A DNA stretch of 64,000 nt from a virus: IMG/VR virus record IMGVR_UViG_3300037418_003024, positions 1 to 64,000 of that record. One strand, written 5' to 3'. The translations under genes were made by a program, and so were the position numbers. Each line of letters opens with the position of its first letter. Positions within the stretch are counted from its first letter, which is position 1. Of this stretch, positions 32,211 through 47,251 are shown piece by piece. The notes under the pieces were generated by a model. That model was given only the letters and a program-made list of their open reading frames with translations, ran no database searches and was not told where the DNA came from.

Positions 32211-33032
32211 ATGTTTGTCCCGCTCGATAATGGCCCGGTCGTCGACGTCTCGCTCAAAACCACACAGATCGTCGACTTTGGCGTACATGCCATTCATAGC
32301 GAAGTCGCATGGAAAGAGACGCAGGGCGACGGCATCAAGGTCGCCGTTCTCGACACCGGTTCTTCTCCCGCACACCCCGATCTCGCACTGAACGTCGTTT
32401 ACTGCTCTGGCAACGACACGCCTCAACAAGCCCACGGGACTCACGTCTCAGGGATCATCGCCGCCTGCAACAATTCGTACGGCGTCGTTGGGGTTGCGCC
32501 GGCGTCGAAGCTGTATTGCTACCAGGTGCTCCCTGGCGGCGGGGACGCGATTGCGCAAGCGATCGACGCGGCTGTCCTGCAGGGCTGCGACATCATCCAT
32601 ATGAGCCTCGGAGCGTACGGCGACTATCCGCCGCTCCACGACGCCATTAAGCGCGCCTACGCCGACGGCGTGGTGATCGTGGCCGCCGCCGGCAATGACC
32701 CGAACCAGGTCGCTTATCCGGCGGCATATCAGGAAGTGATAGCAGTCTCGGCACTCGATCAGAACATGCAGAAGGCCGTCTTCGCTCCGCTCGTTCCCAA
32801 TCACATTGCGATGCCCGGTGTGAACATCCTCTCGACGTGGGCGCCAGACCAGTATGCGCGGATGTCGGGCACGTCCCAGGCGGCTCCGCTGCTCTCCGGC
32901 ACGATCGCGCTGATGCTGGCGAAGTTCCGACCGAAGCGATCGGACGTGCATGACCTGGTGCAGCAAGAATTAACGAAGATCGACAAGCAGTCCGATTCGT
33001 TCTTCTACACCCCGGATTTGGCTCTCCTATGA
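32211..33032 (+). CDS. Subtilisin-like S8 serine protease (no signal peptide)
   Basis: VAVLDTG, HGTHVSG, AAAGND, SGTSQAAP catalytic motifs. Confidence 0.93.
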   Translation: MFVPLDNGPVVDVSLKTTQIVDFGVHAIHSEVAWKETQGDGIKVAVLDTGSSPAHPDLALNVVYCSGNDTPQQAHGTHVSGIIAACNNSYGVVGVAPASKLYCYQVLPGGGDAIAQAIDAAVLQGCDIIHMSLGAYGDYPPLHDAIKRAYADGVVIVAAAGNDPNQVAYPAAYQEVIAVSALDQNMQKAVFAPLVPNHIAMPGVNILSTWAPDQYARMSGTSQAAPLLSGTIALMLAKFRPKRSDVHDLVQQELTKIDKQSDSFFYTPDLALL

Positions 33033-33787: not shown

Positions 33788-34647
33788 AGATCAGTTTCGA
33801 GCATGGGCTCGGGGACTGCGTCCATATCGCCCATCTGCTCAAGGTCTATCAGCGGTTCGGATATGAGTTTGAGCTTGGCGTGGAGCGCAACAAGCGGTGG
33901 TTGTTCGAAACGGCGGGGTTCCGGTGCGTCGACCGTGGCGGCTTCGGCTATCCGGATCTAGCGTACTCTGATCCCGTCCTGTTGCTGGAGGCTGACTACG
34001 GGCACTACTGGCGATGCAATAAGACGGTGATAGCGAGCCAGATGGCTCCGCTGCCGGTTGTGGCATCGATGGAGGACATGTGGTCACTCCTCTGTTGCTG
34101 GCCGAAGATCGACTATCGAACTGGGATACACGCCTCTGTGGACACTGTACGGTCGGCCCTCTGCGGGATGTCGTCTCCGATAGTGCTCATAAACGTGTCT
34201 GGTGCGACGAACAACGACCGCAAGCGTATTCCTTACGAGGTCACACGTCGCATATGTGAAGTCTTGATGTATGAGGGATGCTCTGTCGCCGTGGTGGACG
34301 GTCCGGCGCCGGTCACGCATCCGAAGTGTCGAGCCTTGCCTTATACGCTGTTTCGCGGCAATACACCGAATTGGGTGGCTTTGTTGTCGCTAGTGGACGT
34401 GCTGGTCGGGATCGATTCTGGCCCGTTCCATCTCGCAAGATACACAGGGACGAAGGCGATTGCCTACTGTCCGACGGCGTTTCACTTTCCGTCGCGGTTC
34501 TGCCTGCCGGATGATAACCATCGGTATGCCGTCCCTGTGCGGTTTTCGGCGATGGCGGCGGCCGTGCGACGGGACTACCGAATTGCGTGCTGGGACGAAG
34601 ACCCGGCGGAGACAATTATCAAGCAAGTCTGGGGGTTGCTGGGTTAA
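33775..34647 (+). CDS. Glycosyltransferase family 9-like
   Basis: HGLGDCV...LVGIDSGPFHLA. Confidence 0.8.
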   Translation: MPALKISFEHGLGDCVHIAHLLKVYQRFGYEFELGVERNKRWLFETAGFRCVDRGGFGYPDLAYSDPVLLLEADYGHYWRCNKTVIASQMAPLPVVASMEDMWSLLCCWPKIDYRTGIHASVDTVRSALCGMSSPIVLINVSGATNNDRKRIPYEVTRRICEVLMYEGCSVAVVDGPAPVTHPKCRALPYTLFRGNTPNWVALLSLVDVLVGIDSGPFHLARYTGTKAIAYCPTAFHFPSRFCLPDDNHRYAVPVRFSAMAAAVRRDYRIACWDEDPAETIIKQVWGLLG

Positions 34648-34648
34648 T

Positions 34649-36766
34649 ATGGGATGCGGATGCAACGATAAGAAAAAGGCGTCGGCGCCGGTGACGTTCA
34701 CGGCTGAGGCCGTCGAGGAAAAGCCCCGGCCGACCGGTGCGATATGGACGGTCGTGGTTGGCACTCGCGGCGGCCGGGGGATGTCCCCAGGGCTGATTGA
34801 GTCGCTCTCGGCTATCAAGAACGCCATGATCGAGTCGCACAATCAGGAGATCCGAGTCGTCATCGTCGACACGACCGTCATCGACTTCCCGGATTACGAT
34901 GTCCCCGTTGGCTTCAATATTGTTTTCATGCCGGCGAAGGAGTACTCGTGGGCGCGCGCCATGAACCTGGGCGCAACGTATTACCGGTCGTCTCACTTCC
35001 TGCTGTTCCTCCATGACGACGTGACGCTGCCGGAAGGTCCAGGCTGGCTGCGCGCCCTGCAGGAGGCGTTGGTCGACCGCGCCTGCATCGCCGTCCCGCG
35101 TGTGACCGGGCATTGCTCGTGCCCGCCGCAAGCCGGGGAGGACGACACGCCCCTGTTGTCGTTCGAAATCACAGAGTACATTTCTCCGGCCGTCGTCGCG
35201 ATCAGGCGCGATGTCTTTGTGAAGGCAGGAATGTTCCCGGACGAAATGGACGGTTACGATTGGGCACAGATCGCGCTACAGGATACCGTGGCGCGAATGG
35301 GTGGCTCGACGGTCGTCGTCCCGTCCGTGGTCGTCCACCACGCAGGGGAAAGCTCCTACACCGCCGATGAGCGCATGCAGGGCTGGGAGCGGAACATGAT
35401 TCGCTATGCCGAGATCACCGGGCAACGCGCTGAGTACAAACGCCGTCCGACGCGTGTGCGGCTCCCTTCGGCGGTCGATCGCAAGGGGCCGGCCCTGCTC
35501 TTCGTGGTCGAGGCCAATGAATCGATTGAGCGAGTGCGCAAGATCATTGACGAGAAGATGTCGACGGCGGCCGAGGTCGTGATCGTCGACCTCGCGGCGA
35601 CGGCCGAGCGGTCGGAGTCGTTTCACGCTGTTGAACAGGGGGTGAAGCTGCCGGTTCGGTATGCGCCGGCGTGGGATTCCGATCCGCTGCGGCAGGTGGT
35701 AAACCTCGCGGCTTCGCGTGACGCCGAATTGTACGACATGCGCGTCGGTGCGCCCGTGCCGGCGGTGCCGATCGTCGGGCCTCGGCTCCGCACGGGCTGG
35801 ACATATGCGCTGCCGCAACTGCTCGAGGAGATCCATCTCGGCTACCTGCAGCACGCCGGCATCGGCGACACGGTCATGACGACGCCCGCCCTCCACGCGT
35901 TCCGGCAACGGTGGCCGCATATTCGGATCGTCGCGCATCATGCATGGGCGGCCGGAGAAATCCTGCAGTTCAACCCCGATATCGACGAACTCGTCATTTA
36001 CAATTCCGGTGACCCGAACGTGCTGCCCGAAACCTTCGATATGATGGCCGGTTACGGAATGGAGGGGGCTGTTCGGCAGGCGTATCAAACCCTGTGCGTT
36101 GAGGATCTGACCGATGAACCGCGTCGCGTCCGTTACTTCTTGCAACGAGAGGAGCATGATGCGGCGGTTAAACTGCTGGCCGAACTCGGCCTTCCGCCGA
36201 CGGCGAAGCGCCTGGTCGGGATCCAGTTGCACGGAAACTGGCAGGCCAAGAACTGGTCGTCCGTCGGCGATCTGGTGCGGGCGGTTGCCGGACGCATCGG
36301 CGAGGGGTGGTATCCGATCGTGTTCGGGACCGACCAGGAGCGCATGGCGGATATCTCCGGCGTGCCGCACGTGGCGATCACGCAACAGCCACTCAGGATC
36401 GCGGCGGCGGTTATCGGGCTCCTGGATTGCCTCGTCGGGTTCGACAGCGGGCTCGGATGGCTCGCGGTGGCGCTGCGCACCCCGTGTATTAGCCTTTGGG
36501 GTCCGACCAACCCGCGTGGGTATCTGCTCGACGTCGAGACGACCAACCTCGTGACCATTCGCAAGCGCGTGCCCGACCAGTGCAAAGAGGCGACTGGTGT
36601 AAGCTGCCGCGATTTCACGTCCGGCGCCCGGTGCCCACTGCGTAAAGGGTGGGGGGCAGATTGTATCGACGAAATAACCGTCGACGAAGTCATGGGACAT
36701 TTGGAGGCGATGCCGACGTGGGATCGCCCGATTGAAGACCGCTGGTACGAGAGGCTGGCGGGATAG
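34649..36766 (+). CDS. GT2 + GT9 glycosyltransferase fusion
   Basis: ARAMNLG...LFLHDD (GT2); AGIGDTVMTTPAL...VGFDSGLGWLAVAL...LWGPT (GT9). Confidence 0.85.
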   Translation: MGCGCNDKKKASAPVTFTAEAVEEKPRPTGAIWTVVVGTRGGRGMSPGLIESLSAIKNAMIESHNQEIRVVIVDTTVIDFPDYDVPVGFNIVFMPAKEYSWARAMNLGATYYRSSHFLLFLHDDVTLPEGPGWLRALQEALVDRACIAVPRVTGHCSCPPQAGEDDTPLLSFEITEYISPAVVAIRRDVFVKAGMFPDEMDGYDWAQIALQDTVARMGGSTVVVPSVVVHHAGESSYTADERMQGWERNMIRYAEITGQRAEYKRRPTRVRLPSAVDRKGPALLFVVEANESIERVRKIIDEKMSTAAEVVIVDLAATAERSESFHAVEQGVKLPVRYAPAWDSDPLRQVVNLAASRDAELYDMRVGAPVPAVPIVGPRLRTGWTYALPQLLEEIHLGYLQHAGIGDTVMTTPALHAFRQRWPHIRIVAHHAWAAGEILQFNPDIDELVIYNSGDPNVLPETFDMMAGYGMEGAVRQAYQTLCVEDLTDEPRRVRYFLQREEHDAAVKLLAELGLPPTAKRLVGIQLHGNWQAKNWSSVGDLVRAVAGRIGEGWYPIVFGTDQERMADISGVPHVAITQQPLRIAAAVIGLLDCLVGFDSGLGWLAVALRTPCISLWGPTNPRGYLLDVETTNLVTIRKRVPDQCKEATGVSCRDFTSGARCPLRKGWGADCIDEITVDEVMGHLEAMPTWDRPIEDRWYERLAG

Positions 36767-36794
36767 GCTTCATGGCGTGGGGGCGCATTGGAGC
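36767..36794 (+). promoter_or_regulatory. RBS-sequestering hairpin, copy 3 (before radical SAM gene)
   Basis: GCTTCATGGCGTGGGGGCGCATTGGAGC; GTG start at 36800. Confidence 0.65.
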
Positions 36795-36799
36795 ATGAG

Positions 36800-38419
36800 G
36801 TGCTTGTTAGCAATTGCGGAGTCACGGAACCTATCCGGGCTCCGGGCGTCAAAGACCTTCCGATTCTTCAGCCGGACCCGGCCGTAGAGACTTATGCGGC
36901 CTTGCTTGGGCCGCGAGCGATGCATCTGCGGATCTCGGCTCACTGCGATTCCGAGTGCGTCTTTTGTGAGCGGGAATCGTGGAAGCGTGGCGACAAAGAA
37001 CCCGAAGTCGACATGCCGATTGAGGTGTGGGAGCAGGTCAAGGCGAAGTTCCTGGGCCGGGTCGAGGGTATTGAGGTCGCTGGTCTCGGCGAACCGATGC
37101 TGGCCAAGACGTTCCCGACGATCGCTCGCGACGTGCTTGGCGCCGGCAAGATCTTCTACTTCCCGACCAACGGCCATTTCCTGACAACGAAGATTGCCGA
37201 CTGCCTGGGCGACGGCACAAACGTGCGCGTGTCGGTGTCGATGGACGCCGCCACGCCGGAAACGTATGTTGCGATCGGCCGCGGCAAGAAACCTGCCGAC
37301 TTCCGTAAGGTCGTCGATGGTGTCAAGGCGTTCCGTAAATCTCGTCCGAACGCGTTCGTCCACTCGCAGTTCACTGCCGGGACGTACAACATCGACGAAT
37401 TCCCCGCGTTTATCGACCTGTGCGCCGAGATGGGGGTGCACGAAGTTCAGTTCCGGTTCGTGCATGCCCACACGGTCGCCCGCGAGGATGTTTCCCTGCG
37501 GTTCGCGCGGGATCGGACCGAATCGGCACTCGTCGCGGCACAGCGGAAGGCGGCGGACTACGGCATTACGCTCAACATCGAGCGACGTCCTTATTCGAAG
37601 GAGCAGCCGAATTCCGGGAAGCAAGACCCGATCAGTCGCCTGAAGCGATACCTGGACTTTGCTCCGTTCACCGTACCGACGTGCGGCGGATCGAGCGTTA
37701 GCTCACCGTGCAGTTGTTCGCAGATAGGAGGGCAGATACTTGCGACCAATACAACGGTTACTAGCACGATTGCTACTGCTACATCCGGAGTAGGAAACAA
37801 CCAAACGGTAACTTACTTTTGTCCTGCTAACGGCTCGCAAGTAGTCGATACTAATGCTTCGTATGTCAATGTTTGGACCACGTACGTAGTGTACATCGGG
37901 AATGATGCCCAATTCTGGGCATGTCCCGACAGTGCAACCCACACATGCTATATCGGCAATGGGCAGACCTATCTTCATAGGATCCAAACTGACTTTGTCC
38001 ACTCTTCGGCAGCTTGCCCGAATACAACGTTCACGATTCAGCTTGGATTTTCAACGTTAAGTGCTAGCACGTCTCAGTCTTTTGGTGATTGTCCTCCGTA
38101 CTTTTGCGCGGCCTCGGAGGGCGGTCCCGAGATCGTGACCACAGTGCAGGTACCGCTGGCTGATCTGGCATCGGGCGGCTTCTCCGCTCAGTCGGTAGAG
38201 CAACCGTTCCGTTACGCGGATGCGGCGGCAATCGTGTGGTGCGACGGACGAATTACGTCGTGTTTCGCAGAGCACGTGGTCGGCGATGTGGCGAAAGACG
38301 ACTACGACAGCCTGATTCGCAACCGCCGGTACCAGGCGTTCATGCAACGCCGGCAGAGCGGCACGAATGCGGCGATCTTGGGTGAGCCTTGGTGCGCCCA
38401 CTGCCCGCGGGTGTATTGA
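36800..38419 (+). CDS. Radical SAM/SPASM(twitch) protein with a Cys/Ser/Thr-rich insert of about 140 aa
   Basis: CDSECVFC, GLGEPML, TNG, VSMDA; C-terminal DGRITSC...CAHC. Confidence 0.88.
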   Translation: MLVSNCGVTEPIRAPGVKDLPILQPDPAVETYAALLGPRAMHLRISAHCDSECVFCERESWKRGDKEPEVDMPIEVWEQVKAKFLGRVEGIEVAGLGEPMLAKTFPTIARDVLGAGKIFYFPTNGHFLTTKIADCLGDGTNVRVSVSMDAATPETYVAIGRGKKPADFRKVVDGVKAFRKSRPNAFVHSQFTAGTYNIDEFPAFIDLCAEMGVHEVQFRFVHAHTVAREDVSLRFARDRTESALVAAQRKAADYGITLNIERRPYSKEQPNSGKQDPISRLKRYLDFAPFTVPTCGGSSVSSPCSCSQIGGQILATNTTVTSTIATATSGVGNNQTVTYFCPANGSQVVDTNASYVNVWTTYVVYIGNDAQFWACPDSATHTCYIGNGQTYLHRIQTDFVHSSAACPNTTFTIQLGFSTLSASTSQSFGDCPPYFCAASEGGPEIVTTVQVPLADLASGGFSAQSVEQPFRYADAAAIVWCDGRITSCFAEHVVGDVAKDDYDSLIRNRRYQAFMQRRQSGTNAAILGEPWCAHCPRVY

Positions 38420-39264
38420 TGCGTGTCTACGACTGCGTGGTCTTCAACGACGAACTGGATTTGCTCGAGATCCGCTTGCACGAACTCGCCGACGTCGTCG
38501 ATGTGTTCGTGATCTGTGAGGGGAACTTCGACTTCAAGGGCCGCCGTAAGCCACTGCACTTTCTGAATAACGCCAGTCGGTTCGAACCGTTCCTCGACAA
38601 GATACGGCACGTCGGCTGCGTGCGCGGTATGCCTCAGCAGCATCCGTTCATCCAGCGCGGTGAGTGGGATCCTCGCGCTTGGGCGAACGAACATTATCAG
38701 CGCGATAGGTGTTGGAGTGCGATAGGTGACGCGACCCCTGACGATATCATCCTGCTAAGCGATGGTGACGAGATCCCGGCGGCCTCGGCGGTTCGGCGGC
38801 TGCGCGACGGATTCACGTCGCCGGTTCGGATTTGCGGACGGCAGCATTACTACAACTTCAACCGGTCGTTTCGATCGAATGATTACCACGGCTGGGCGGC
38901 GATGACGTTGGCGTCGACCCGCGCGGCCATCGGCTCGGCTCCCGCGTCGGAATTCCGAAAGACCTACTGCGCCCCGCTCTCGACCGAGCCGATGGGCTGG
39001 CACTGCACCTGGTTCGGCGGACACTGGCGGGTGAAGCTCAAGGAGTACATATACAATCACCCGATGGCGGCCTCGCTTGACGATCGCATCGCTGAAGGGG
39101 ACGCGAACGGGCGGGAGGCGCATCACGGCTGGAAGCTCGCCTACTCCGATGATCTCTCGACCATCCCCGTATACGTACAGCAGAACCTGCCGAAGTTCGC
39201 GCACCTCTTCGACGAGATGTGCATTACGACGCACGGCACTCTGTTCGATTATCCCGAGGTCTGA
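38419..39264 (+). CDS. GT17-like (beta-1,4-GlcNAc transferase) glycosyltransferase
   Basis: RVYDCVVFNDELDLLEIRLHELADVVDVFVICE...LSDGDEIP...GWHCTW. Confidence 0.85.
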   Translation: MRVYDCVVFNDELDLLEIRLHELADVVDVFVICEGNFDFKGRRKPLHFLNNASRFEPFLDKIRHVGCVRGMPQQHPFIQRGEWDPRAWANEHYQRDRCWSAIGDATPDDIILLSDGDEIPAASAVRRLRDGFTSPVRICGRQHYYNFNRSFRSNDYHGWAAMTLASTRAAIGSAPASEFRKTYCAPLSTEPMGWHCTWFGGHWRVKLKEYIYNHPMAASLDDRIAEGDANGREAHHGWKLAYSDDLSTIPVYVQQNLPKFAHLFDEMCITTHGTLFDYPEV

Positions 39265-39266
39265 CG

Positions 39267-42050
39267 GTGCCCACCCTCTACCAAGACATTCCCGGTTGGA
39301 TGGATTTCGAGACATTGTACGACCAGATTGTGCCCTCACTGCAACCGGGCGCCATCATCGTCGAAGTCGGGAGCTACTTTGGGCGGTCTGCGGTCTACAT
39401 GGCCGAACTCTTGGCCGATCGCGAGATGGAAGTCGAGTTCTACGCAGTCGATGTGTGGAACGTCTCGACCTACGAGCGCGAGGACCATACCGCATACCAT
39501 GCCAGATTTGGCAGTCAATGGGATGCTTTCCAGTACAGCATTCAAAGCGCCGGCCTGGAAGATCGCATCAAGCCGATGCGCATGCCGTCGACGGAAGCCG
39601 CGGCGAAGTTCGCCGATGAATCTATCGACTTTCTCTTTCTCGACGCCGACCACGAGTACCCGGGCGTCAGCGCGGATATGGCGGCATGGTGGCCGAAGGT
39701 GAAGGTCGGTGGCATCATGGCCGGGCACGACTACCACGGGTTCCCGGGTGTTGAGCGCGCCGTGCGAGAACGCTTCGGGCATCTGAAGGCGGTTCACGGA
39801 AACTGCTGGATGGTGACGAAGACGCCGGCGGCTCCGAATGTGAGCGTCCGAGAAGGTGTCATCAATGCCCTCGACCTCTCCATCGTTATCCCCACCTACA
39901 ACAAAGTCGAGCTCACCGCCCAGTGCTTCGCGTCGATCGCGCGCAATGTCGGTCGCCTCAAGTACGAAATCATCGTCGTCGATAATGGCTCGACGGACGC
40001 GACCAATAGCTTCGTCGGGTCGCACGTCGCCGGGCAGATCCGCGGGGCGGCACAGGGCACACCGCCGAAGAAAGTCACGCTCCTGCACAACGAGGTTCCC
40101 CGGCTGCTCGCGCGGTCGTGGAACATGGGAGTGGATGCGGCTCGTGGCCGGCAGATACTGATCACGAACAACGACGTTCTGTTCTCTCCCGGCAGCCTGG
40201 AATCGATGGTGTGGCTCGCGGATATAAACGATTCTGCCGGCGTCGTACTCCCACTCGGCCCGCGCGACGTCGCCGCCGCCCCACGCATTGAGCGCCCGGA
40301 CACGTCCGATACCCCGGTAGACACTTCTATCCGCAACATGGAGGCGGTCGAGAAATATTGGGTCGGCCATAAGGCGACCGGCGGCGTGCAGTACCTCAGC
40401 GATCCCTACGTACCCCAGGGCGGCTACTGTTTCGTCCTCACGCGCCGGGCGTGGGAGGCGACTGGTCGATTCGACGAAGAGTATGACTTGACCGCCGAGG
40501 ACTGGGACTACTTCGCGCGGATGCGACGACATTACAAACTCACCCGGTCGACGGACGCGTATGTCGAGCACTTCGAGCATTCGAGCTGCATGGATCTCGG
40601 CCTGGAATTCCACGAACGGTTATGCCGAAACCGTTTCCGCCTGACTGAGAAGAACGAGCACTGTTACGAGATGTTCTCGATCGTGATGCCGACCTACAAC
40701 CGCGTCGACGCGCTGCGCCCGGCCATCGACAGTGTGCTCGCCCAAACGTTCCCCCATTGGCGGCTCTACATTATCGATGACGGTTCGACCAACTGGGACG
40801 AGATCCAGGCGCTTTCGAAAGAGTACGCACTGGCCGCTAACCGCATATGGTGGTTCCATCGGCCGAAGAACGAAGGGCCGGGTTCGGCGCGCAACTGGGG
40901 ACTGTCGTACACGCGCGGCAAGTATGTCGCGTTTCTGGACAGTGACGATCTGTGGTATCGCGACCACCTGCAGGCGCATTGGGACGCCCACGAAAACGGA
41001 CAATGGGCGATGGTCTACAGTGATCCCGATTTCGCCTGGCGGTGGTGGGACAAGAGCGTCGGGCGGTTCCTCTACCAGAGCGACAAGCACCCGTTCATTG
41101 ATTACCTCGGAGGGGGCGCGCCATGGTCGCCTGAACTGCTGCGGCAGCGTTGCTACATCCAGACGTCGGCCGTGAGCGTGTGGGGCAACCTGGCGCGCTC
41201 GCTGCGGTTCCCTGAACACATGCGCGTTGAGGAAGATTGGGAGTACTTCAAGGCCACTGCGGACGTTTTTGGCCCGGGCCGCCCTGTGCTGCACCTTCCT
41301 CGGAAAACCTGCCGGTACCACATCGCCCGTAACCCGCACGAGGAAGATCACCTGACTCGCGGGTTCGTGCCTCAATCGGTCGATTCTCCGAAGCCGCGAC
41401 TCATGCTGGACCGTCCGGTAACGGGCGAGATCGGCGTCGTCACGCCGACGAAAGAGCGCCCGTGTTGCCTACCTCGCGCGATCTCAAGCGCCGGCGCGGT
41501 GCCGGTGGTCGTGGTCGATGATGGCTCCATGGTCGCGACCGAAGCCTTCGACATTTGCGAGCGGTCGCCAAACGTCTCTCTCCTGCGGTTCGATCGATCG
41601 CAGGGTGCGAGCGCGGCCCGCAATATCGGCGTTGACCGGCTGCAGACGGAGTGGGTGCAGTTCCTCGACGACGATGATGTGTTGACGGCGGACTGGCTCG
41701 CACGGCTCCGCCCGCATATGGTGGCCGGTGTCGACGTAATCATTGGCGCGGCGTACGTTCCTGGTGAGCGCGGTTTGGCCGTGAATAACGACGTGTTCAC
41801 GTCGCAAATCTGCGTCCGTCGGTCCTGGCTCATTGACGCCGGGGGATTCCGGTCGGGTGTCGCGTGGATGGAAGAGCGCGAGCTCATCGAGCGACTGCAA
41901 GCGATGGGGGCGAACGTCGTGCGCGAGCCCGTGCCGACCGTCACGCGCCCTGCTCGCGGTGGATCTGGCGACCCGGCGACGGTGTCCAAACCTGCTCCGG
42001 TGCCAGCCTCCGGTCGCCGCGTGGTGGGCAGGTTCGGAGGTAAGTTCTGA
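39267..42050 (+). CDS. Class I SAM methyltransferase fused to three GT2 domains
   Basis: VEVGSYFGRS/FLDADHEY/GHDY; SIVIPTYN, SIVMPTYN and GVVTPTK with DXD motifs. Confidence 0.88.
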   Translation: MPTLYQDIPGWMDFETLYDQIVPSLQPGAIIVEVGSYFGRSAVYMAELLADREMEVEFYAVDVWNVSTYEREDHTAYHARFGSQWDAFQYSIQSAGLEDRIKPMRMPSTEAAAKFADESIDFLFLDADHEYPGVSADMAAWWPKVKVGGIMAGHDYHGFPGVERAVRERFGHLKAVHGNCWMVTKTPAAPNVSVREGVINALDLSIVIPTYNKVELTAQCFASIARNVGRLKYEIIVVDNGSTDATNSFVGSHVAGQIRGAAQGTPPKKVTLLHNEVPRLLARSWNMGVDAARGRQILITNNDVLFSPGSLESMVWLADINDSAGVVLPLGPRDVAAAPRIERPDTSDTPVDTSIRNMEAVEKYWVGHKATGGVQYLSDPYVPQGGYCFVLTRRAWEATGRFDEEYDLTAEDWDYFARMRRHYKLTRSTDAYVEHFEHSSCMDLGLEFHERLCRNRFRLTEKNEHCYEMFSIVMPTYNRVDALRPAIDSVLAQTFPHWRLYIIDDGSTNWDEIQALSKEYALAANRIWWFHRPKNEGPGSARNWGLSYTRGKYVAFLDSDDLWYRDHLQAHWDAHENGQWAMVYSDPDFAWRWWDKSVGRFLYQSDKHPFIDYLGGGAPWSPELLRQRCYIQTSAVSVWGNLARSLRFPEHMRVEEDWEYFKATADVFGPGRPVLHLPRKTCRYHIARNPHEEDHLTRGFVPQSVDSPKPRLMLDRPVTGEIGVVTPTKERPCCLPRAISSAGAVPVVVVDDGSMVATEAFDICERSPNVSLLRFDRSQGASAARNIGVDRLQTEWVQFLDDDDVLTADWLARLRPHMVAGVDVIIGAAYVPGERGLAVNNDVFTSQICVRRSWLIDAGGFRSGVAWMEERELIERLQAMGANVVREPVPTVTRPARGGSGDPATVSKPAPVPASGRRVVGRFGGKF

Positions 42051-42409
42051 TGCCGTCCGCGTTCACACGGTGGGGAGCGATGAAGCCGGGCCCGATCTCG
42101 TCACCCAATAGTTGGCGTCGAGGAGTGGGGTATGTCGACAACGTCACGCCTGTCGGCGCCATCGACGGGGTGAACAAGATATACACGCTCGTCGATTCGA
42201 CTGGAGCGGTGAAAGCGCCAAATCCGGCGGCGTCGCTGCTTCTACTCGCCGACGGTAATGCCTGCGTGCAGAACGGCCCCGCGGCCGATCCTTCCGGCAA
42301 TCCGATGTTTACGTACACGTTGAGCGGCGACACGGTCACTTTCAATAATGCGCTGCCGTCGACCGTTGTCACGCTCAAGGCCTGGTTCCGATACAAGCTG
42401 GGGAGTTGA
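42050..42409 (+). CDS. Putative tail/fibre-associated protein
   Basis: GAIDGVNKIYTL and YTLSGDTVTF..A motifs seen in phage tail proteins. Confidence 0.5.
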   Translation: MPSAFTRWGAMKPGPISSPNSWRRGVGYVDNVTPVGAIDGVNKIYTLVDSTGAVKAPNPAASLLLLADGNACVQNGPAADPSGNPMFTYTLSGDTVTFNNALPSTVVTLKAWFRYKLGS

Positions 42410-42411
42410 AA

Positions 42412-44490
42412 ATGCGTTTCGTTCGATACTGGCTCTTGCTGATTGTCTGTTTAATGCTGCCAGCGTACGGGCAGATGTCCCAGGACCTGGTGCGATTCCG
42501 TCCGCCCGTGGCGCCGGATTCCGTGACCGTCGGCGCTCCGTCCTATTCGGGCACGACGGAGTATCTGCGCTTCTCGCCGCTCTTTTCCGCGACATCGCCG
42601 GCGATGTCCGTGCAGCAATACCAATGGCAGTATTCGACCGACAGTGGGACGACATGGAAAGGACCGGACGGAACTTCGTCGACCTACTACTTCGCGCCGA
42701 GTTATATTAATAGCTTCACGTCCGGCACGATGGAGGTGAGGTGTAGGTCCATCACGCCGCAATATCCGTCGGGCGTGGCGTCGGCGTGGGTGACGAGCGC
42801 GAACACGACCTACACGTCGCCATCCAGCGGCGGTGGCACGGTGGTTCCGTTTACGACATGGTCGAGCACAACAACATACACGACGGGGCAGGTCGTCTAT
42901 GGTTCGGACAATAACCTCTATGTCTCGCAGGGCAATTCCAACCTGAACAATAATCCGACGCTCGACACCGGTACGAACTGGAAGCTCTGGGGACTTGAGG
43001 CCAACCTGACGATGAATTGCGGTGTGGGGCAACAGTTTGCCGATACGTTCGCGGCGAGTTCATCGCCTGGGGGAGCAATGTCCCCTGGCATGAACACTGC
43101 GATCACCTTCTCTGCCACGGCGGGGGTCGCTGTCTCGCCTACGGTTGCCACTGCTACCTACCAGCAGGCGAACAATCCATCGACAACTTGCAGTGCCACG
43201 GGGTCGACCACAACGCTAGTAACGACGCTCAACATACCCCTCTACGCACATATCCTGTTCAAGGGTGACGTGACTGTGGGACTGAAAGGATATACCGGCA
43301 CAGTAACCGCGAGCACCTATTCGGCTGGAAATTACACGCTCACACTCGGCAATATGTTCAGCGGTAGTACGGTTGGATCAGGCAATCCAGGAGTGGTTGC
43401 GCTCCCGTCCGCGCCAGTCGGTGGGGATACCTTTTGGTACACACCGTTCTATGGGAGTAACCGAATACTATTTAACTCCCTGGCGATCGGGCAGAACGCG
43501 AAGGTGCTCGGTAGCACTTCCAATCCGGTTTGCCCGACAGCTCTCCCGTCCGTGACGTTTTCCGGAACCGGCGGGACTGGTTGGGCGATCGGGCCGCCAA
43601 ACTATTTTGCTGTCTCCTACACCTACGTGGACAATTCCGGGACGACCCGAGAAACCCTTCCTGGCTCGGTTGTCTCACAAACCGCATCGAGCGGTCAACA
43701 GCCCACCGTCGCCTCCTTCACGCTGCCGACCGGGATCGCCGGCGCCAAGCTGTACGCGTCGGAGACATTAAACGGGACACTCTACTACCAGGCAACTTTT
43801 ACAATCTCAGGAGGTGTCGCCCAGGCGCTCTCAGTCCCCGCCTACACGACATCAAGCTACGCCGCCGCGACAACGATGCCTGACGTGGCTACCTACCCGT
43901 GCGCGATCGGTGGAAATCCCCTCTCAAACCAAGGGCTAATCAATATCCAACCATACGGGCAAAGCTACGCCGCCAATACGGTGAGCTATATAAGCGGACT
44001 CACTCTCTATGGGCTAGGTTCGGCAGGGAACTCTTCAGCCTGTGGTGTGGTGATGGCCTTCAACTGCGCGAGCAAGATTCTAAACTGCGTGCTCGCGGGA
44101 TGGGGTACAGCCAGTGGCTCTGTCGGTGGAAACGCCATAATCACCGAGTACGGCAAATCGGCTGTTTACCTGCAGAACGACGAGATCAGTAACTCCTATA
44201 CCGGGTTTTGCATGTTCTCTGGTTCCGGGCTCACGCGAAACATTCGCATTTATAACTGCGATTACGGAATACTCTGTGATTCCTCCGGCAGTTCAGGCGA
44301 CGTTGAGGGCGCGAACGTCTGGGCGACGTATGGATTCTACTCTCGATATAGCAGCACTCTCTACACGACGCCGTACCAGCCGACGAACGGGACTGCCGTT
44401 CCAACGTATGGTTGCTCGACTGCCTCTTCCCCCGGTTTTAATGCCCTTGGAACTGGGCAGCAGGCCGGATCAATCAACTATAACGACTAG
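42412..44490 (+). CDS. Tail-fibre/spike-like protein with signal peptide, FN3-like, CBM5/12-like and beta-helix segments
   Basis: MRFVRYWLLLIVCLMLPAYG; WSSTTTYTTGQVVY...NNNP....NW; S/T/G-rich. Confidence 0.65.
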   Translation: MRFVRYWLLLIVCLMLPAYGQMSQDLVRFRPPVAPDSVTVGAPSYSGTTEYLRFSPLFSATSPAMSVQQYQWQYSTDSGTTWKGPDGTSSTYYFAPSYINSFTSGTMEVRCRSITPQYPSGVASAWVTSANTTYTSPSSGGGTVVPFTTWSSTTTYTTGQVVYGSDNNLYVSQGNSNLNNNPTLDTGTNWKLWGLEANLTMNCGVGQQFADTFAASSSPGGAMSPGMNTAITFSATAGVAVSPTVATATYQQANNPSTTCSATGSTTTLVTTLNIPLYAHILFKGDVTVGLKGYTGTVTASTYSAGNYTLTLGNMFSGSTVGSGNPGVVALPSAPVGGDTFWYTPFYGSNRILFNSLAIGQNAKVLGSTSNPVCPTALPSVTFSGTGGTGWAIGPPNYFAVSYTYVDNSGTTRETLPGSVVSQTASSGQQPTVASFTLPTGIAGAKLYASETLNGTLYYQATFTISGGVAQALSVPAYTTSSYAAATTMPDVATYPCAIGGNPLSNQGLINIQPYGQSYAANTVSYISGLTLYGLGSAGNSSACGVVMAFNCASKILNCVLAGWGTASGSVGGNAIITEYGKSAVYLQNDEISNSYTGFCMFSGSGLTRNIRIYNCDYGILCDSSGSSGDVEGANVWATYGFYSRYSSTLYTTPYQPTNGTAVPTYGCSTASSPGFNALGTGQQAGSINYND

Positions 44491-44782: not shown

Positions 44783-47251
44783 GTGAGAGTAGACACGCTC
44801 CTCGAAGTAGACATTAACGCCCTGCGCGCCGTTTTCCCGATGGAGGTCAAGCCGTTCTTCAGCACGACCGACTTCGTGGGGGAGTACGCGAGCAGCGGGT
44901 TCCCGCGGTACGATGCCTCCGGCCTCGTCCAGAGTGCACAAGATGGCACGCAGGCCGGGATGGAATTCGATCCTATCGCGAAGGTGGTTCACCCGCGAGC
45001 GGTCTTTCTCCCCCACGATCAGAAGTTCGCCGCATTCAACCCCGGCGGCTATGACTACACTGATCGCGACTGCTTCAGCTCCGACTCAGGCAATCCTTAC
45101 TTCTTCTGGGCGATGCCTCCACGCGAATCGGTCGGCACGGCGGACTACTCGTTGCCGGACCCCGCCGAACCCGGCTTTCAGGCACTCAGGTTCGATACCG
45201 CTGACGGCAACCCATTCGCCGTTCTGCTCGACGGCGCCCCATGTATCGCCTCCCAAGCGTACACCGGTTTCATGAAGTTCGGGCCGCCTGGTAATCTTGG
45301 CGGCTACATCAGCGCTGCCGGATATCGATGGCGAGTTGTGGGATCGAGCCGCGGAACGTATCGGTGGTTCGAGGTCACATGGCAATCGGGCGATGGCGTA
45401 TGGTTCCGGTACAACGACGTGAACGACGCTGACGGGTCGCCGGACGATAATTACTGGGTCGACGTCGACCAGATTGGGCAGGGGTCACAGGTTTCAGACA
45501 CCCTGAGCACCCAGTACGCCCCGAACACTGGCGACGATCCGAACGCCGGAGATCCCCCAGTCCATACCATCTACGTCAAGGTGATGGGTGGATTGATGCA
45601 GGTCACCATCGACAGCGATGTGACGCCGTATGTTTGGACGCTTGATCTTGCGGACAGCGTCGGTGAACCGGACTGGGTGATCGACTGGTGGCAAATGATC
45701 GCCTTCGACATCCTCATGGTCGAGTGGTCCGTCCATGCGACGAAGTGGCGGGCCTCGGCCGCGATCGCGTCCAATGAAATCAACCTGGGCTTTGTCCCGT
45801 CCAGTGGACAACTCAGCACGATGCTGCTTCGGGCTCATTACTTGCCCACCTACCGCCAGTCGGACGGCTCCGCTGCGCCGTACACAAACTACGTGCATGT
45901 CGGATTTAGGCCGGACGGTACCGGCGCGGATCTCGAAACATGGTCCGTCAACGGCGTTCTTTACCAATATCTTCTGACGATCAATAACATAGAAACAGGT
46001 ACGTGGAAGGGATTCGCCTATGCCGACTTCACGGCTGCCGTTCATGCGGTGACGATCGACTTCGCTGCCAGCACCTATTCTAAGGTCCAGGCTCCTACCG
46101 TGCTCGGCACGCTCGGCGCGCCTCCTAACCCCCAATCGATCGAAATCACCAAAACGTTCGACCTGGACCGCCTCACGATTACGTCAACGTGCGCGATGAC
46201 GTTCCGGAACTTCACGGGCCTCTGGACGAACTGGAACAACAACGGCATCGTGGATATGCACGGCCATATGGCCGCACAGGTGAACTTGGGTATTGGCGCC
46301 TACGGCACGACGCGATCGGAATTCCTCGGGATCTGGAATACGCGGTTCACGAACGATTGGAAAGGCGGGGGGAACGACGACGTTACGATCTTTGGTGACG
46401 ACATCTCACTGATGCTCCGCGTCCCGGCGTTCAACCTGCCGTGGATGGATGGCTGGAACGTGTACTACGCTCTGGCGTTCCTCGCGGCCATGGGCGGCAT
46501 CACGCTTAACCAGCTTGCATTCGCGACCTATGTTCCCGCCAACCCCTACGACCCATCGCCTGGACTGGTGCAGCAATATTATCTCCCGACCGGGCCGGCA
46601 GGGACGGCGCTGACGCGGTTTACGGGTGGTCAACTGATCTGGGATATCATGCTCAAGATCGCCCAGAGCATTGGCTTTATGCTCTTCTTCGGGGTCGACG
46701 GTTATCTCTACTTCTTCAAGTTCGGGCTGGTAGGCATACCGTCAATCGTCAAGACGTTCAACTACGTCGCTGGAGCGTATGGCGGCGGTGCCGGCCTCGA
46801 CGAGATCTTCATGGGAACGTACGAGTCTGGCCTCTACGAAACACGAAACAGTGTCACGGTAATCGGCGTGTCCGCGCTCGGTCCACTTTGGAATCCGATT
46901 GTCGCGTGGGACACAGACACGGACAGTGTCTATAACGACTACGTCTGGAATTACAAAGGGTATTTCGATCCCACGGTATGGGTCGATAACATCTTCGCCG
47001 ACCAGGCGTTTGCTGGCGTCGCGGCGGAATCGCTTCTCAACTTCCTGCGACTGCCGGATAAGAGCTTGAAGTTCTCGACCTGGTACCCGGGCGATATCGG
47101 CGTCTACCCGAACATGTTCATCAACATCGTCAATCCGCGGTCGAGCGCGTCCAACTTCACCTTCTTTGTAGTCGGCACGCACGTCACCGTCGGCAAGGGC
47201 AAGATCCCGCAAATGGACATCACGGCCCGCATCGTGCCACAACTCTATTGA
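44783..47251 (+). CDS. Putative tail tip/hub protein
   Basis: 822 aa; IAQSIGFMLFFGVDGYLYF...TRNSVTVIG resembles hub proteins. Confidence 0.6.
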   Translation: MRVDTLLEVDINALRAVFPMEVKPFFSTTDFVGEYASSGFPRYDASGLVQSAQDGTQAGMEFDPIAKVVHPRAVFLPHDQKFAAFNPGGYDYTDRDCFSSDSGNPYFFWAMPPRESVGTADYSLPDPAEPGFQALRFDTADGNPFAVLLDGAPCIASQAYTGFMKFGPPGNLGGYISAAGYRWRVVGSSRGTYRWFEVTWQSGDGVWFRYNDVNDADGSPDDNYWVDVDQIGQGSQVSDTLSTQYAPNTGDDPNAGDPPVHTIYVKVMGGLMQVTIDSDVTPYVWTLDLADSVGEPDWVIDWWQMIAFDILMVEWSVHATKWRASAAIASNEINLGFVPSSGQLSTMLLRAHYLPTYRQSDGSAAPYTNYVHVGFRPDGTGADLETWSVNGVLYQYLLTINNIETGTWKGFAYADFTAAVHAVTIDFAASTYSKVQAPTVLGTLGAPPNPQSIEITKTFDLDRLTITSTCAMTFRNFTGLWTNWNNNGIVDMHGHMAAQVNLGIGAYGTTRSEFLGIWNTRFTNDWKGGGNDDVTIFGDDISLMLRVPAFNLPWMDGWNVYYALAFLAAMGGITLNQLAFATYVPANPYDPSPGLVQQYYLPTGPAGTALTRFTGGQLIWDIMLKIAQSIGFMLFFGVDGYLYFFKFGLVGIPSIVKTFNYVAGAYGGGAGLDEIFMGTYESGLYETRNSVTVIGVSALGPLWNPIVAWDTDTDSVYNDYVWNYKGYFDPTVWVDNIFADQAFAGVAAESLLNFLRLPDKSLKFSTWYPGDIGVYPNMFINIVNPRSSASNFTFFVVGTHVTVGKGKIPQMDITARIVPQLY

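Follow-up and report, generated by a model that had tools for sequence, protein, structure and literature searches.

The 64,000-nucleotide stretch analyzed here (the window; positions 1 to 64,000 of IMG/VR record IMGVR_UViG_3300037418_003024) is part of a linear, 94.7-kb record of an uncultured virus that is ~83% complete. It encodes a 543-residue radical SAM enzyme (P0001; positions 36788..38419, + strand) that is split by an in-frame, Cys-rich insert of 147 codons (residues 298-444; 37679..38119, + strand). We found that the insert is a real and unusual feature of a Twitch-type radical SAM enzyme belonging to a rare, phage-only family, and that its site is a hot spot that exists in three states among homologues: a short linker, a long Cys/Thr-rich segment, or a Hint domain. 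The insert looks inherited and fast-evolving, as judged from alignments and a tree. Our favored reading is that it is a lineage-specific, rapidly changing, Cys-framed domain that expands the bridging segment of a phage-specific enzyme and possibly serves as a docking module. Taken as a whole, we give this reading about an even chance. We are highly confident of the anatomy, hot spot, inheritance, and dispensability that it includes; a docking or specificity role, considered by itself, seems to us possible rather than probable.

The enzyme gene was delineated by translation, Pfam searches, and homologue alignments, and its start is uncertain within ~30 nt. The public gene call begins at ATG 36920 (M45) and yields a 499-residue protein, which removes N-terminal residues conserved in homologues (DPP..SY..LL.P motif). 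Because homologues conserve these residues 5′ of M45, the true start appears to lie upstream of 36920, at or near TTG 36788. The S-adenosylmethionine (AdoMet) radical core spans residues ~39-292 (36902..37663, + strand), on the basis of Pfam, invariant columns, Foldseek, and an AlphaFold2 (AF2) model with a predicted local distance difference test (pLDDT) score of >90; Pfam Radical_SAM (PF04055) matches residues 49-211 at 36.8 bits (cutoff, 29.5). Its motifs are CX3CX2C (C53/C57/C60; 36944-36967), GLGEP, and RYLDFxP (37646-37666), which terminates the core. C53, C57, and C60 are nearly invariant in an alignment of 14 homologues. In the AF2 model, pLDDT is >90 for residues 20-292 and 471-540 and <50 for residues 293-470; residues 1-19 are disordered.

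The original prediction, made from the letters of the window and its translated open reading frames (ORFs), placed the Cys-rich segment between the radical SAM core and a SPASM domain. The segment does follow the core, but the C-terminal domain is not SPASM. SPASM domains have a seven-Cys motif, CX9-15GX4C-gap-CX2CX5CX3C-gap-C, and two auxiliary clusters, and Twitch is a truncated, one-cluster form (PMC6231123). The full SPASM motif (PF13186/TIGR04085) is absent from P0001, and the Pfam SPASM match at residues 480-540 is below threshold (18.9 bits; cutoff, 21.5). The domain is better described as Twitch because only GX4C and CX2C are present (G487-X4-C492, 38261-38263; C536, 38393-38395; C539, 38402-38404) and the protein ends four residues past C539. 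G487, C492, C536, and C539 are invariant in alignments of 14 and of 27 homologues. This Twitch-type auxiliary-cluster domain comprises residues 479-543 (38222..38416, + strand), as delimited by invariant columns, a weak BtrN profile match, and AF2 (pLDDT, 83 to 96). At the sequence level, P0001 has the features of the Twitch subclass (BtrN, SkfB, and MoaA type), and an auxiliary cluster is predicted.

The first Cys after the core, C299 (37682..37684, + strand), stands at the very start of the insert. It is kept in 22 of 27 aligned sequences; in the remaining five, a Cys occurs a few positions farther on or at another place within the short linker. Comparison of this alignment with the published motif definition (PMC6231123) leads us to infer that C299 is the first auxiliary-cluster ligand, that is, the initial Cys of CXnGX4C. 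Because C299 matches this first motif Cys, the insert would be an expanded loop between it and GX4C, that is, inside the auxiliary-cluster motif, rather than a simple interdomain linker. Between the insert and the Twitch hairpin lies a semiconserved segment (GxPEIV..V.P... in P0001, PEI[VI]R.V..PR in homologues; 38120..38221, + strand, from alignments). P0001 lacks a recognizable RiPP (ribosomally synthesized and posttranslationally modified peptide) recognition element (RRE): the part before the core is only ~40 residues long and has no domain in the AF2 model, compared with SkfB, whose core begins at about residue 107.

We delimited the insert by composition, G+C content at third codon positions (GC3), alignments, and AF2. 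It contains 9 Cys and 41 Ser/Thr residues (22 Thr and 19 Ser), and just 7 of its 147 residues carry a charge (no Lys, one Arg, one Glu, and five Asp). This agrees well with the ~140 in-frame, Cys-rich codons originally placed at 37670-38120, and the AT-richer codon usage that had been described there was also confirmed: GC3 is 72/147 (0.49) in the insert versus 296/396 (0.75) elsewhere in the gene (Fisher p = 2.9e-8), and the AT-richness sits at synonymous sites. Across the window's 25 large genes, the 50-codon segments of lowest GC3 are those in the insert, which has five with GC3 <0.5 versus one in the other 24 large genes. The dip recurs in the homologous insert of contig L005, whose phage differs in base composition (0.40 versus 0.56; p = 1e-4). 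The open frame is beyond chance expectation, since an in-frame stop was missing in 0.08% of shuffles, and the other two plus-strand frames have six and nine stops. We found no tandem repeats in the insert. An RNA element or antisense gene as the cause of the low-GC stretch was considered and rejected, as the stretch has no Rfam match at E values up to 1. A 99-residue antisense ORF within the insert (37703-38002, − strand) is likely to be spurious, and nothing of at least 120 residues corresponds to it in L005.

Classification of 27 homologues by the length of the segment from the RYLDFxP motif to the start of Twitch revealed the three states of the site. Eight homologues have a short Ser/Gly/Thr linker of 45 to 85 residues with one or two Cys. 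Eleven, including P0001 (185 residues in all from core end to Twitch start), have a Cys/Thr-rich segment of 113 to 291 residues with 6 to 13 Cys and 23 to 32% Ser plus Thr. The remaining eight have a Hint domain of ordinary composition in a segment of 182 to 222 residues. Aligned Hint inserts share Cys1, a GD strand, and the block B S/TxxH motif; four of eight also have a terminal HN (P0011, P0020, P0024, and P0025, as opposed to P0026, P0033, P0034, and P0036). In the four HN-type relatives, the residue after HN is K, P, or A, so that there is no +1 nucleophile, which is the pattern of A-type bacterial intein-like (BIL) domains. Because this nucleophile is missing, canonical splicing of these relatives is doubtful, and cleavage to a two-piece enzyme is possible. 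The best PDB sequence match to the P0024 insert is the gp41-1 intein, in an alignment that reaches the terminal HN. Its AF2 model (pLDDT, 83 to 94) retrieves with Foldseek first BIL domains (6y75, E = 1e-10; 2lwy, template modeling [TM] score 0.84) and then mini-inteins (gp41-1, TM 0.88), with TM scores of 0.78 to 0.88 over both groups; the predicted fold thus confirms the Hint/BIL state for this insert. BIL domains are located in hypervariable protein regions and cleave at one or the other end (PMC7765530). On the tree described below, HN-type Hint inserts are dispersed, each with a short-linker sister.

Long inserts behave differently from the HN-type Hint domains on a tree that we built from conserved columns only, leaving insert columns out. 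Ten of the 11 fall in one group of 12, within which two short-linker proteins, P0004 and P0005, are nested and represent two losses. The Cys/Thr class label changes three times on the tree versus 8.7 times with shuffled labels, and none of 500 shuffles was as low. This grouping indicates that the long insert has been inherited within a lineage and sometimes lost, and was not recently acquired from a foreign source. The nesting of short-linker enzymes among long-insert ones indicates that the basic chemistry of the family does not depend on the insert.

Although inherited, the insert changes fast. The flanks of P0001 and its nearest relative, P0002, are 60% identical over 328 columns, yet their inserts align at only 16 bits, and just 3 of 55 insert pairs match at E <0.01 (none in shuffles). 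In a leave-one-out profile test, seven inserts were clearly mutually homologous (0 or 1 of 200 shuffles scored as high); for an eighth, P0019, the margin was narrow (rank 1 of 200), and P0001, P0003, and P0008 scored no better than their own shuffles. Homologue alignment had been proposed at the outset as a check for hypervariability at this position, and its result was positive. What is retained among the long inserts is a Cys framework: 10 columns have Cys in at least 5 of 11 inserts, forming three recurrent close pairs and four single Cys. Aligned Cys-Cys pairs number 342 versus 96 ± 22 (maximum, 133) in inserts that were shuffled and realigned (z of about 11). This conserved framework, together with the near absence of charge and the long open frame, argues that the insert is under selection, unlike unselected filler. 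The framework is compatible with a cross-linked or metal-held scaffold.

Searches with the insert itself returned little. It has no homologue at E values up to 1 among 5.8 billion protein clusters at near or shorter lengths (to 951 residues) and no paralogue in the 94.7-kb phage record, so that these searches lend no support to the suggestion that it is an exchangeable adhesin domain displayed on the virion. The ESM Atlas gave no usable match by features and, by structure, only TM 0.29 to 0.39. In PDB sequence searches, the P0001 insert had only subthreshold compositional matches to framework 3 of antibody heavy-chain variable (VH) domains (E = 0.04 to 0.4) and the L005 insert had none; no Pfam domain was found in the inserts of P0001, P0010, and P0017.

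The enzyme family as a whole is rare. A profile search of 1.84 billion representatives found 29 proteins at E <1e-30, and every homologue found is of metagenomic or viral-contig origin. No relative was detected when 185,579 species genomes were scanned with a pattern; conservation of the insert in ordinary cellular homologues, which would have told against the original prediction, was thus not observed. A phage database had no protein or DNA match, and the 90% cluster of the enzyme holds only its own protein and one 56-residue fragment, leaving no close relatives in the collections for dN/dS analysis. The best PDB sequence matches are SkfB (core; E = 3e-5) and BtrN (Twitch region; E = 0.009). 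Foldseek matches at the top of the list for the AF2 core are all radical SAM enzymes (E of about 1e-10), with BlsE, SkfB, DesII, SuiB, MoaA, CteB, and viperin scoring alike. As side observations, the next-nearest radical SAM/SPASM proteins outside the family, P0037, P0047, and P0038, are distant relatives and giant fusions that combine tandem radical SAM/SPASM units with a class III aminotransferase or with sulfotransferase and TPR domains; their architecture gives a hint that enzymes around this family may act on small molecules or sugars.

The viral record carries tailed-phage genes for a major head protein, a head protease-like protein, a sigma factor, a large helicase, an integrase, RecT, and SbcC, and the enzyme belongs to a conserved cluster adjoining tail genes that includes GT9-like, GT17, and triple-GT2 glycosyltransferases and methyltransferases. 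Pfam searches identified, on the same strand as the enzyme gene, an S8 protease, an FkbM methyltransferase, two GT9-like proteins, a GT17 protein, and a 943-residue methyltransferase/GT2 protein, followed by proteins of 694 and 822 residues. A 768-residue protein with a C-terminal GT9 (heptosyltransferase-like) domain (34460..36766, + strand) lies directly 5′ of the enzyme. Downstream, the GT17-family glycosyltransferase gene (38389..39264, + strand) overlaps the 3′ end of the enzyme gene by 31 nt; GT17 is the family of the eukaryotic bisecting N-acetylglucosamine transferase. Next come the 943-residue protein, a methyltransferase with three GT2 domains (39219..42050, + strand), and, downstream of the transferase cluster, the 694-residue (ORF 42406-44490) and 822-residue (44783-47251) proteins, both on the strand of the enzyme and neither with a Pfam, PHROG, NCBIfam, or PDB sequence match. 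Inside the 694-residue ORF, positions 42718-43230 encode an uncharged, Ser/Thr/Asn/Gly-rich stretch in the style of tail fibers, which is the sole other real ORF segment in the window to pass a screen for Ser/Thr-rich, charge-poor composition. The 822-residue protein may be an acceptor or a tail component.

We read gene context and DNA at four loci: the window, L001 (a 96%-complete provirus), L004, and L005 (a 19.5-kb contig). The window and L005 encode long inserts, and L004 encodes a short-linker enzyme. The GT9-like protein lies directly 5′ of the enzyme in the window, L004, and L005, and L005 also has a downstream GT17 counterpart. A triple-GT2 protein and a relative of the 822-residue protein accompany the enzyme in the window, L005 (12410-14590 and 18586-19521), and L001 (12551-16962), that is, at three of four loci, and the L004 contig stops short of this position; in L005 and L001, too, the GT2 part adjoins the enzyme. 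Across these loci, the triple-GT2 and 822-residue proteins track the enzyme more constantly than do the S8 protease, the GT9-like protein, or GT17. The S8 (subtilisin-like) protease (32211..33032, + strand, in the window) is found in L004, whose enzyme has a short linker, but neither in the long-insert contig L005 nor in the nearly complete L001 provirus. This distribution does not fit the proposal that the protease releases the insert. The broader scheme of which that was part, in which the peptide is modified, glycosylated, and excised, fares no better: because short-linker enzymes are nested among long-insert ones and L004 keeps the same neighbors, enzyme and cluster appear to work without the insert. 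The closest curated families to the S8 protease are the type VII secretion mycosins (140 bits; cutoff, 279) and QhpE (84 bits; cutoff, 165), both below threshold; the similarity is compatible with an actinobacterial-type host and does not assign the protease to a family.

In the reading that we favor, the insert is an expanded bridging segment that connects the AdoMet radical core to the one-cluster Twitch domain, beginning right after the putative first auxiliary ligand Cys and finishing just before the GX4C hairpin. It would protrude as a loop at the entrance to the active site, next to the auxiliary cluster. Since the cluster and the enzyme seem to function without the insert, the enzyme probably has a substrate in trans, which could be a sugar-nucleotide, glycan, or phage protein also handled by the neighboring transferases. 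By analogy with SuiB, in which the bridging region makes contact with the substrate, the insert may serve to dock a variable acceptor or to set specificity for it, and rapid change between fixed Cys would suit an acceptor that itself changes fast, for example, a tail or surface component acted on by the neighboring transferases. Selection would then act on the Cys positions and on the uncharged, β-prone composition, with the loops between left free to vary, and Cys pairs may be metal-held. Low GC3 could be a by-product of this rapid turnover or could have been selected because it slows translation between two domains that bind cofactors.

Several points weigh against this reading. AF2 gives the insert neither a confident fold (pLDDT <50) nor contacts, and its placement at the active-site mouth is drawn from motif order only. 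P0001 keeps 6 of the 10 framework Cys and has partly lost the partners of the CX2-8C pairs, which weakens the metal-site view for this protein. The four loci from which gene context was read are a small sample. As for the chemistry, fold neighbors mix sugar or nucleoside enzymes (BlsE and DesII) with peptide maturases (SkfB, SuiB, and CteB) at similar scores, and no NCBIfam model comes near its cutoff (the best maturase models score 23 to 34 bits against cutoffs of 300 to 650); because of this, and because there is no room for an RRE, the reaction cannot be read from similarity.

Other explanations make the insert matter less or give it a different origin. The site might be a permissive surface loop, and the insert a decaying remnant without function that stays in frame only for translation of the downstream Twitch domain. 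Acceptance of unrelated content at the site (short linkers and Hint domains), two losses inside the long-insert clade, and the lack of a detectable fold or of any homologue outside the family would all fit such tolerated filler, as would low GC3, which is expected from relaxed codon selection plus AT-biased mutation. We nevertheless consider it unlikely: the Cys framework is far above that of realigned shuffles, K, R, and E together make up only 2 of 147 residues, unlike drift at 50% GC, and inserts of up to 291 residues have been retained in 11 diverged lineages. The original prediction called the peptide foreign, and a 25-point drop in GC3 limited to the insert would be in keeping with recently arrived DNA or with a diversity-generating retroelement (DGR) that causes both odd composition and variability. 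But the L005 insert repeats the dip and long inserts group as a clade on the insert-free tree; moreover, neither the window nor the 94.7-kb record (itself ~83% complete) contains a second copy of the insert at the DNA or protein level, the record has no reverse transcriptase (RVT_1) match, and there is no tandem repeat. We therefore rejected a DGR, which should have a template repeat and a reverse transcriptase, and regard this explanation in either form as hardly credible. Equally implausible is a degenerate intein or BIL domain whose catalytic residues have been lost. Eight relatives do have Hint/BIL domains of similar size at the same site. The P0001 insert, however, lacks the intein motifs (Cys/Ser1, block B T/SxxH, and terminal HN) throughout residues 298-444, as the original prediction had said; hhalign gives a probability of 0.03% for Cys/Thr inserts versus Hint inserts, for which reason this candidate was rejected; charged residues account for 6 to 12% of Cys/Thr inserts versus 14 to 27% of Hint inserts; and the two classes occupy different regions of the tree.

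Two further alternatives take the Cys themselves as the key to function. As an extra metal or Fe-S domain, the insert would bind Fe-S or zinc through its paired Cys (CPxxC, CX2-8C, and CNGxC) and extend the electron path or stabilize the cluster domain. Three recurrent close pairs and four single framework Cys, inside the auxiliary-cluster motif of an Fe-S enzyme, make this attractive, but cluster motifs are normally strictly conserved, and here spacing varies widely, several of the positions are missing in individual members, and P0001 has lost the partners of two pairs. Short-linker members manage without these Cys, and the Pfam searches found no Fe-S or zinc domain in the inserts of P0001, P0010, and P0017; on balance, we think such a domain distinctly unlikely. 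We judge it somewhat less probable still that the insert is the enzyme's own substrate in cis, with radical chemistry tying its Cys to carbons of neighboring Thr, Ser, or Asn (sactionine or ranthionine type) to make a stapled scaffold, hypervariable in sequence, that would remain attached to the enzyme or be freed by proteolysis. Fixed Cys and hypervariable loops do resemble Cys-framed RiPP cores, the insert emerges beside a putative auxiliary-cluster ligand, and the missing RRE would not be needed for a fused substrate. In addition, SkfB is the best PDB sequence match, Hint domains, a self-cleaving type, occupy this position in relatives, and cross-linking of a whole Cys-rich protein by a radical SAM/SPASM enzyme is known (CrpC/CrpA; PMC13692751). 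However, the nested short-linker enzymes P0004 and P0005 have a single Cys and L004 keeps its neighbors, which implies another substrate, in trans; the S8 protease comes and goes independently of the insert; an internal core of 113 to 291 residues, used once per enzyme molecule, is without precedent; no leader-like conserved segment precedes the insert except the enzyme itself; and AF2 shows no contact between insert and active site. An extension of this view, in which the BIL-bearing relatives represent an alternative kind of self-processing, such as cleavage or transfer of enzyme halves, is just as improbable.

Among characterized enzymes, the closest parallel in position is SuiB, whose bridging region lies between the AdoMet core and the auxiliary domain, provides the first Aux I Cys ligand, and contacts the substrate peptide (PMC6231123). 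The phage insert occupies the same motif position as this region and the CteB linker, right after the equivalent Cys. It differs in that the segment is 185 residues long (up to 291 in relatives), rich in Cys, Thr, and Ser, nearly uncharged, hypervariable, and dispensable in nested relatives, and in that the phage enzyme has Twitch rather than SPASM and no RRE. The loop from Cys to GX4C is ~190 residues in the phage enzyme versus 9 to 15 in the SPASM/Twitch consensus (PMC6231123). With BtrN, SkfB, and MoaA, P0001 shares a CX3CX2C core and one auxiliary cluster motif (a Cys before the hairpin, GX4C, and CX2C), although the similarity is marginal (E = 3e-5 at best) and below curated cutoffs.

Systems in which a Cys-rich protein is modified offer a looser comparison. 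The QhpD/QhpC/QhpE system introduces thioether cross-links into a Cys-rich protein by means of a radical SAM/SPASM enzyme and includes a subtilisin-like protease. CrpC is a radical SAM/SPASM enzyme that forms thioether cross-links in the Cys-rich protein CrpA (PMC13692751). Like these systems, the phage locus encodes a Cys-rich part of protein size rather than a short peptide, and the subthreshold QhpE match of its S8 protease is in the same direction; unlike them, it has the Cys-rich part inside the enzyme, whereas CrpC and Qhp enzymes have full SPASM domains and recognize separate substrates via N-terminal domains or an RRE. In borosin N-methyltransferases (OphMA), the core peptide and the modifying enzyme share one polypeptide. 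BURP-domain cyclases are likewise enzyme-substrate fusions whose core is encoded with its modifying enzyme (PMC12186524). In both, presence of the core defines the family, and the core lies at a terminus or forms repeats in a region devoted to it; the phage insert is internal, within a cofactor motif, and missing in nested relatives. A borosin-type fusion would also have a constant core and release by a partner protease; here, short linkers are nested and the S8 protease is uncoupled from the insert. BIL domains and mini-inteins are matched by the eight relatives with a Hint fold at the exact site, unlike the P0001 insert, which has no Hint domain. With respect to gene context, mycobacteriophage virion glycosylation clusters include several glycosyltransferases and methyltransferases beside structural genes of temperate phages. 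The window resembles them in having transferase genes, which may act in glycosylation, beside structural genes; those clusters are not known to contain a radical SAM enzyme.

Radical SAM enzymes of the SPASM/Twitch type are usually read as a core and a cluster domain joined by a short linker. In this phage-only family, the linker within the auxiliary-cluster motif can house 100 to 290 extra residues or a self-cleaving Hint domain. Fixed Cys with changing loops is a pattern of receptor-binding or cross-linked peptide scaffolds, not of enzyme linkers, and BIL domains at the site amount to a natural experiment on whether enzymes of this class can withstand a backbone break at a cluster motif. Should the insert turn out to be its own enzyme's substrate, it would represent a new route to stapled, diversifiable protein scaffolds made inside the phage-infected cell. 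If, as we favor, it is a specificity module, it would mark where such enzymes choose their targets and would point to a fast-changing acceptor of the putative phage glycosylation cluster.

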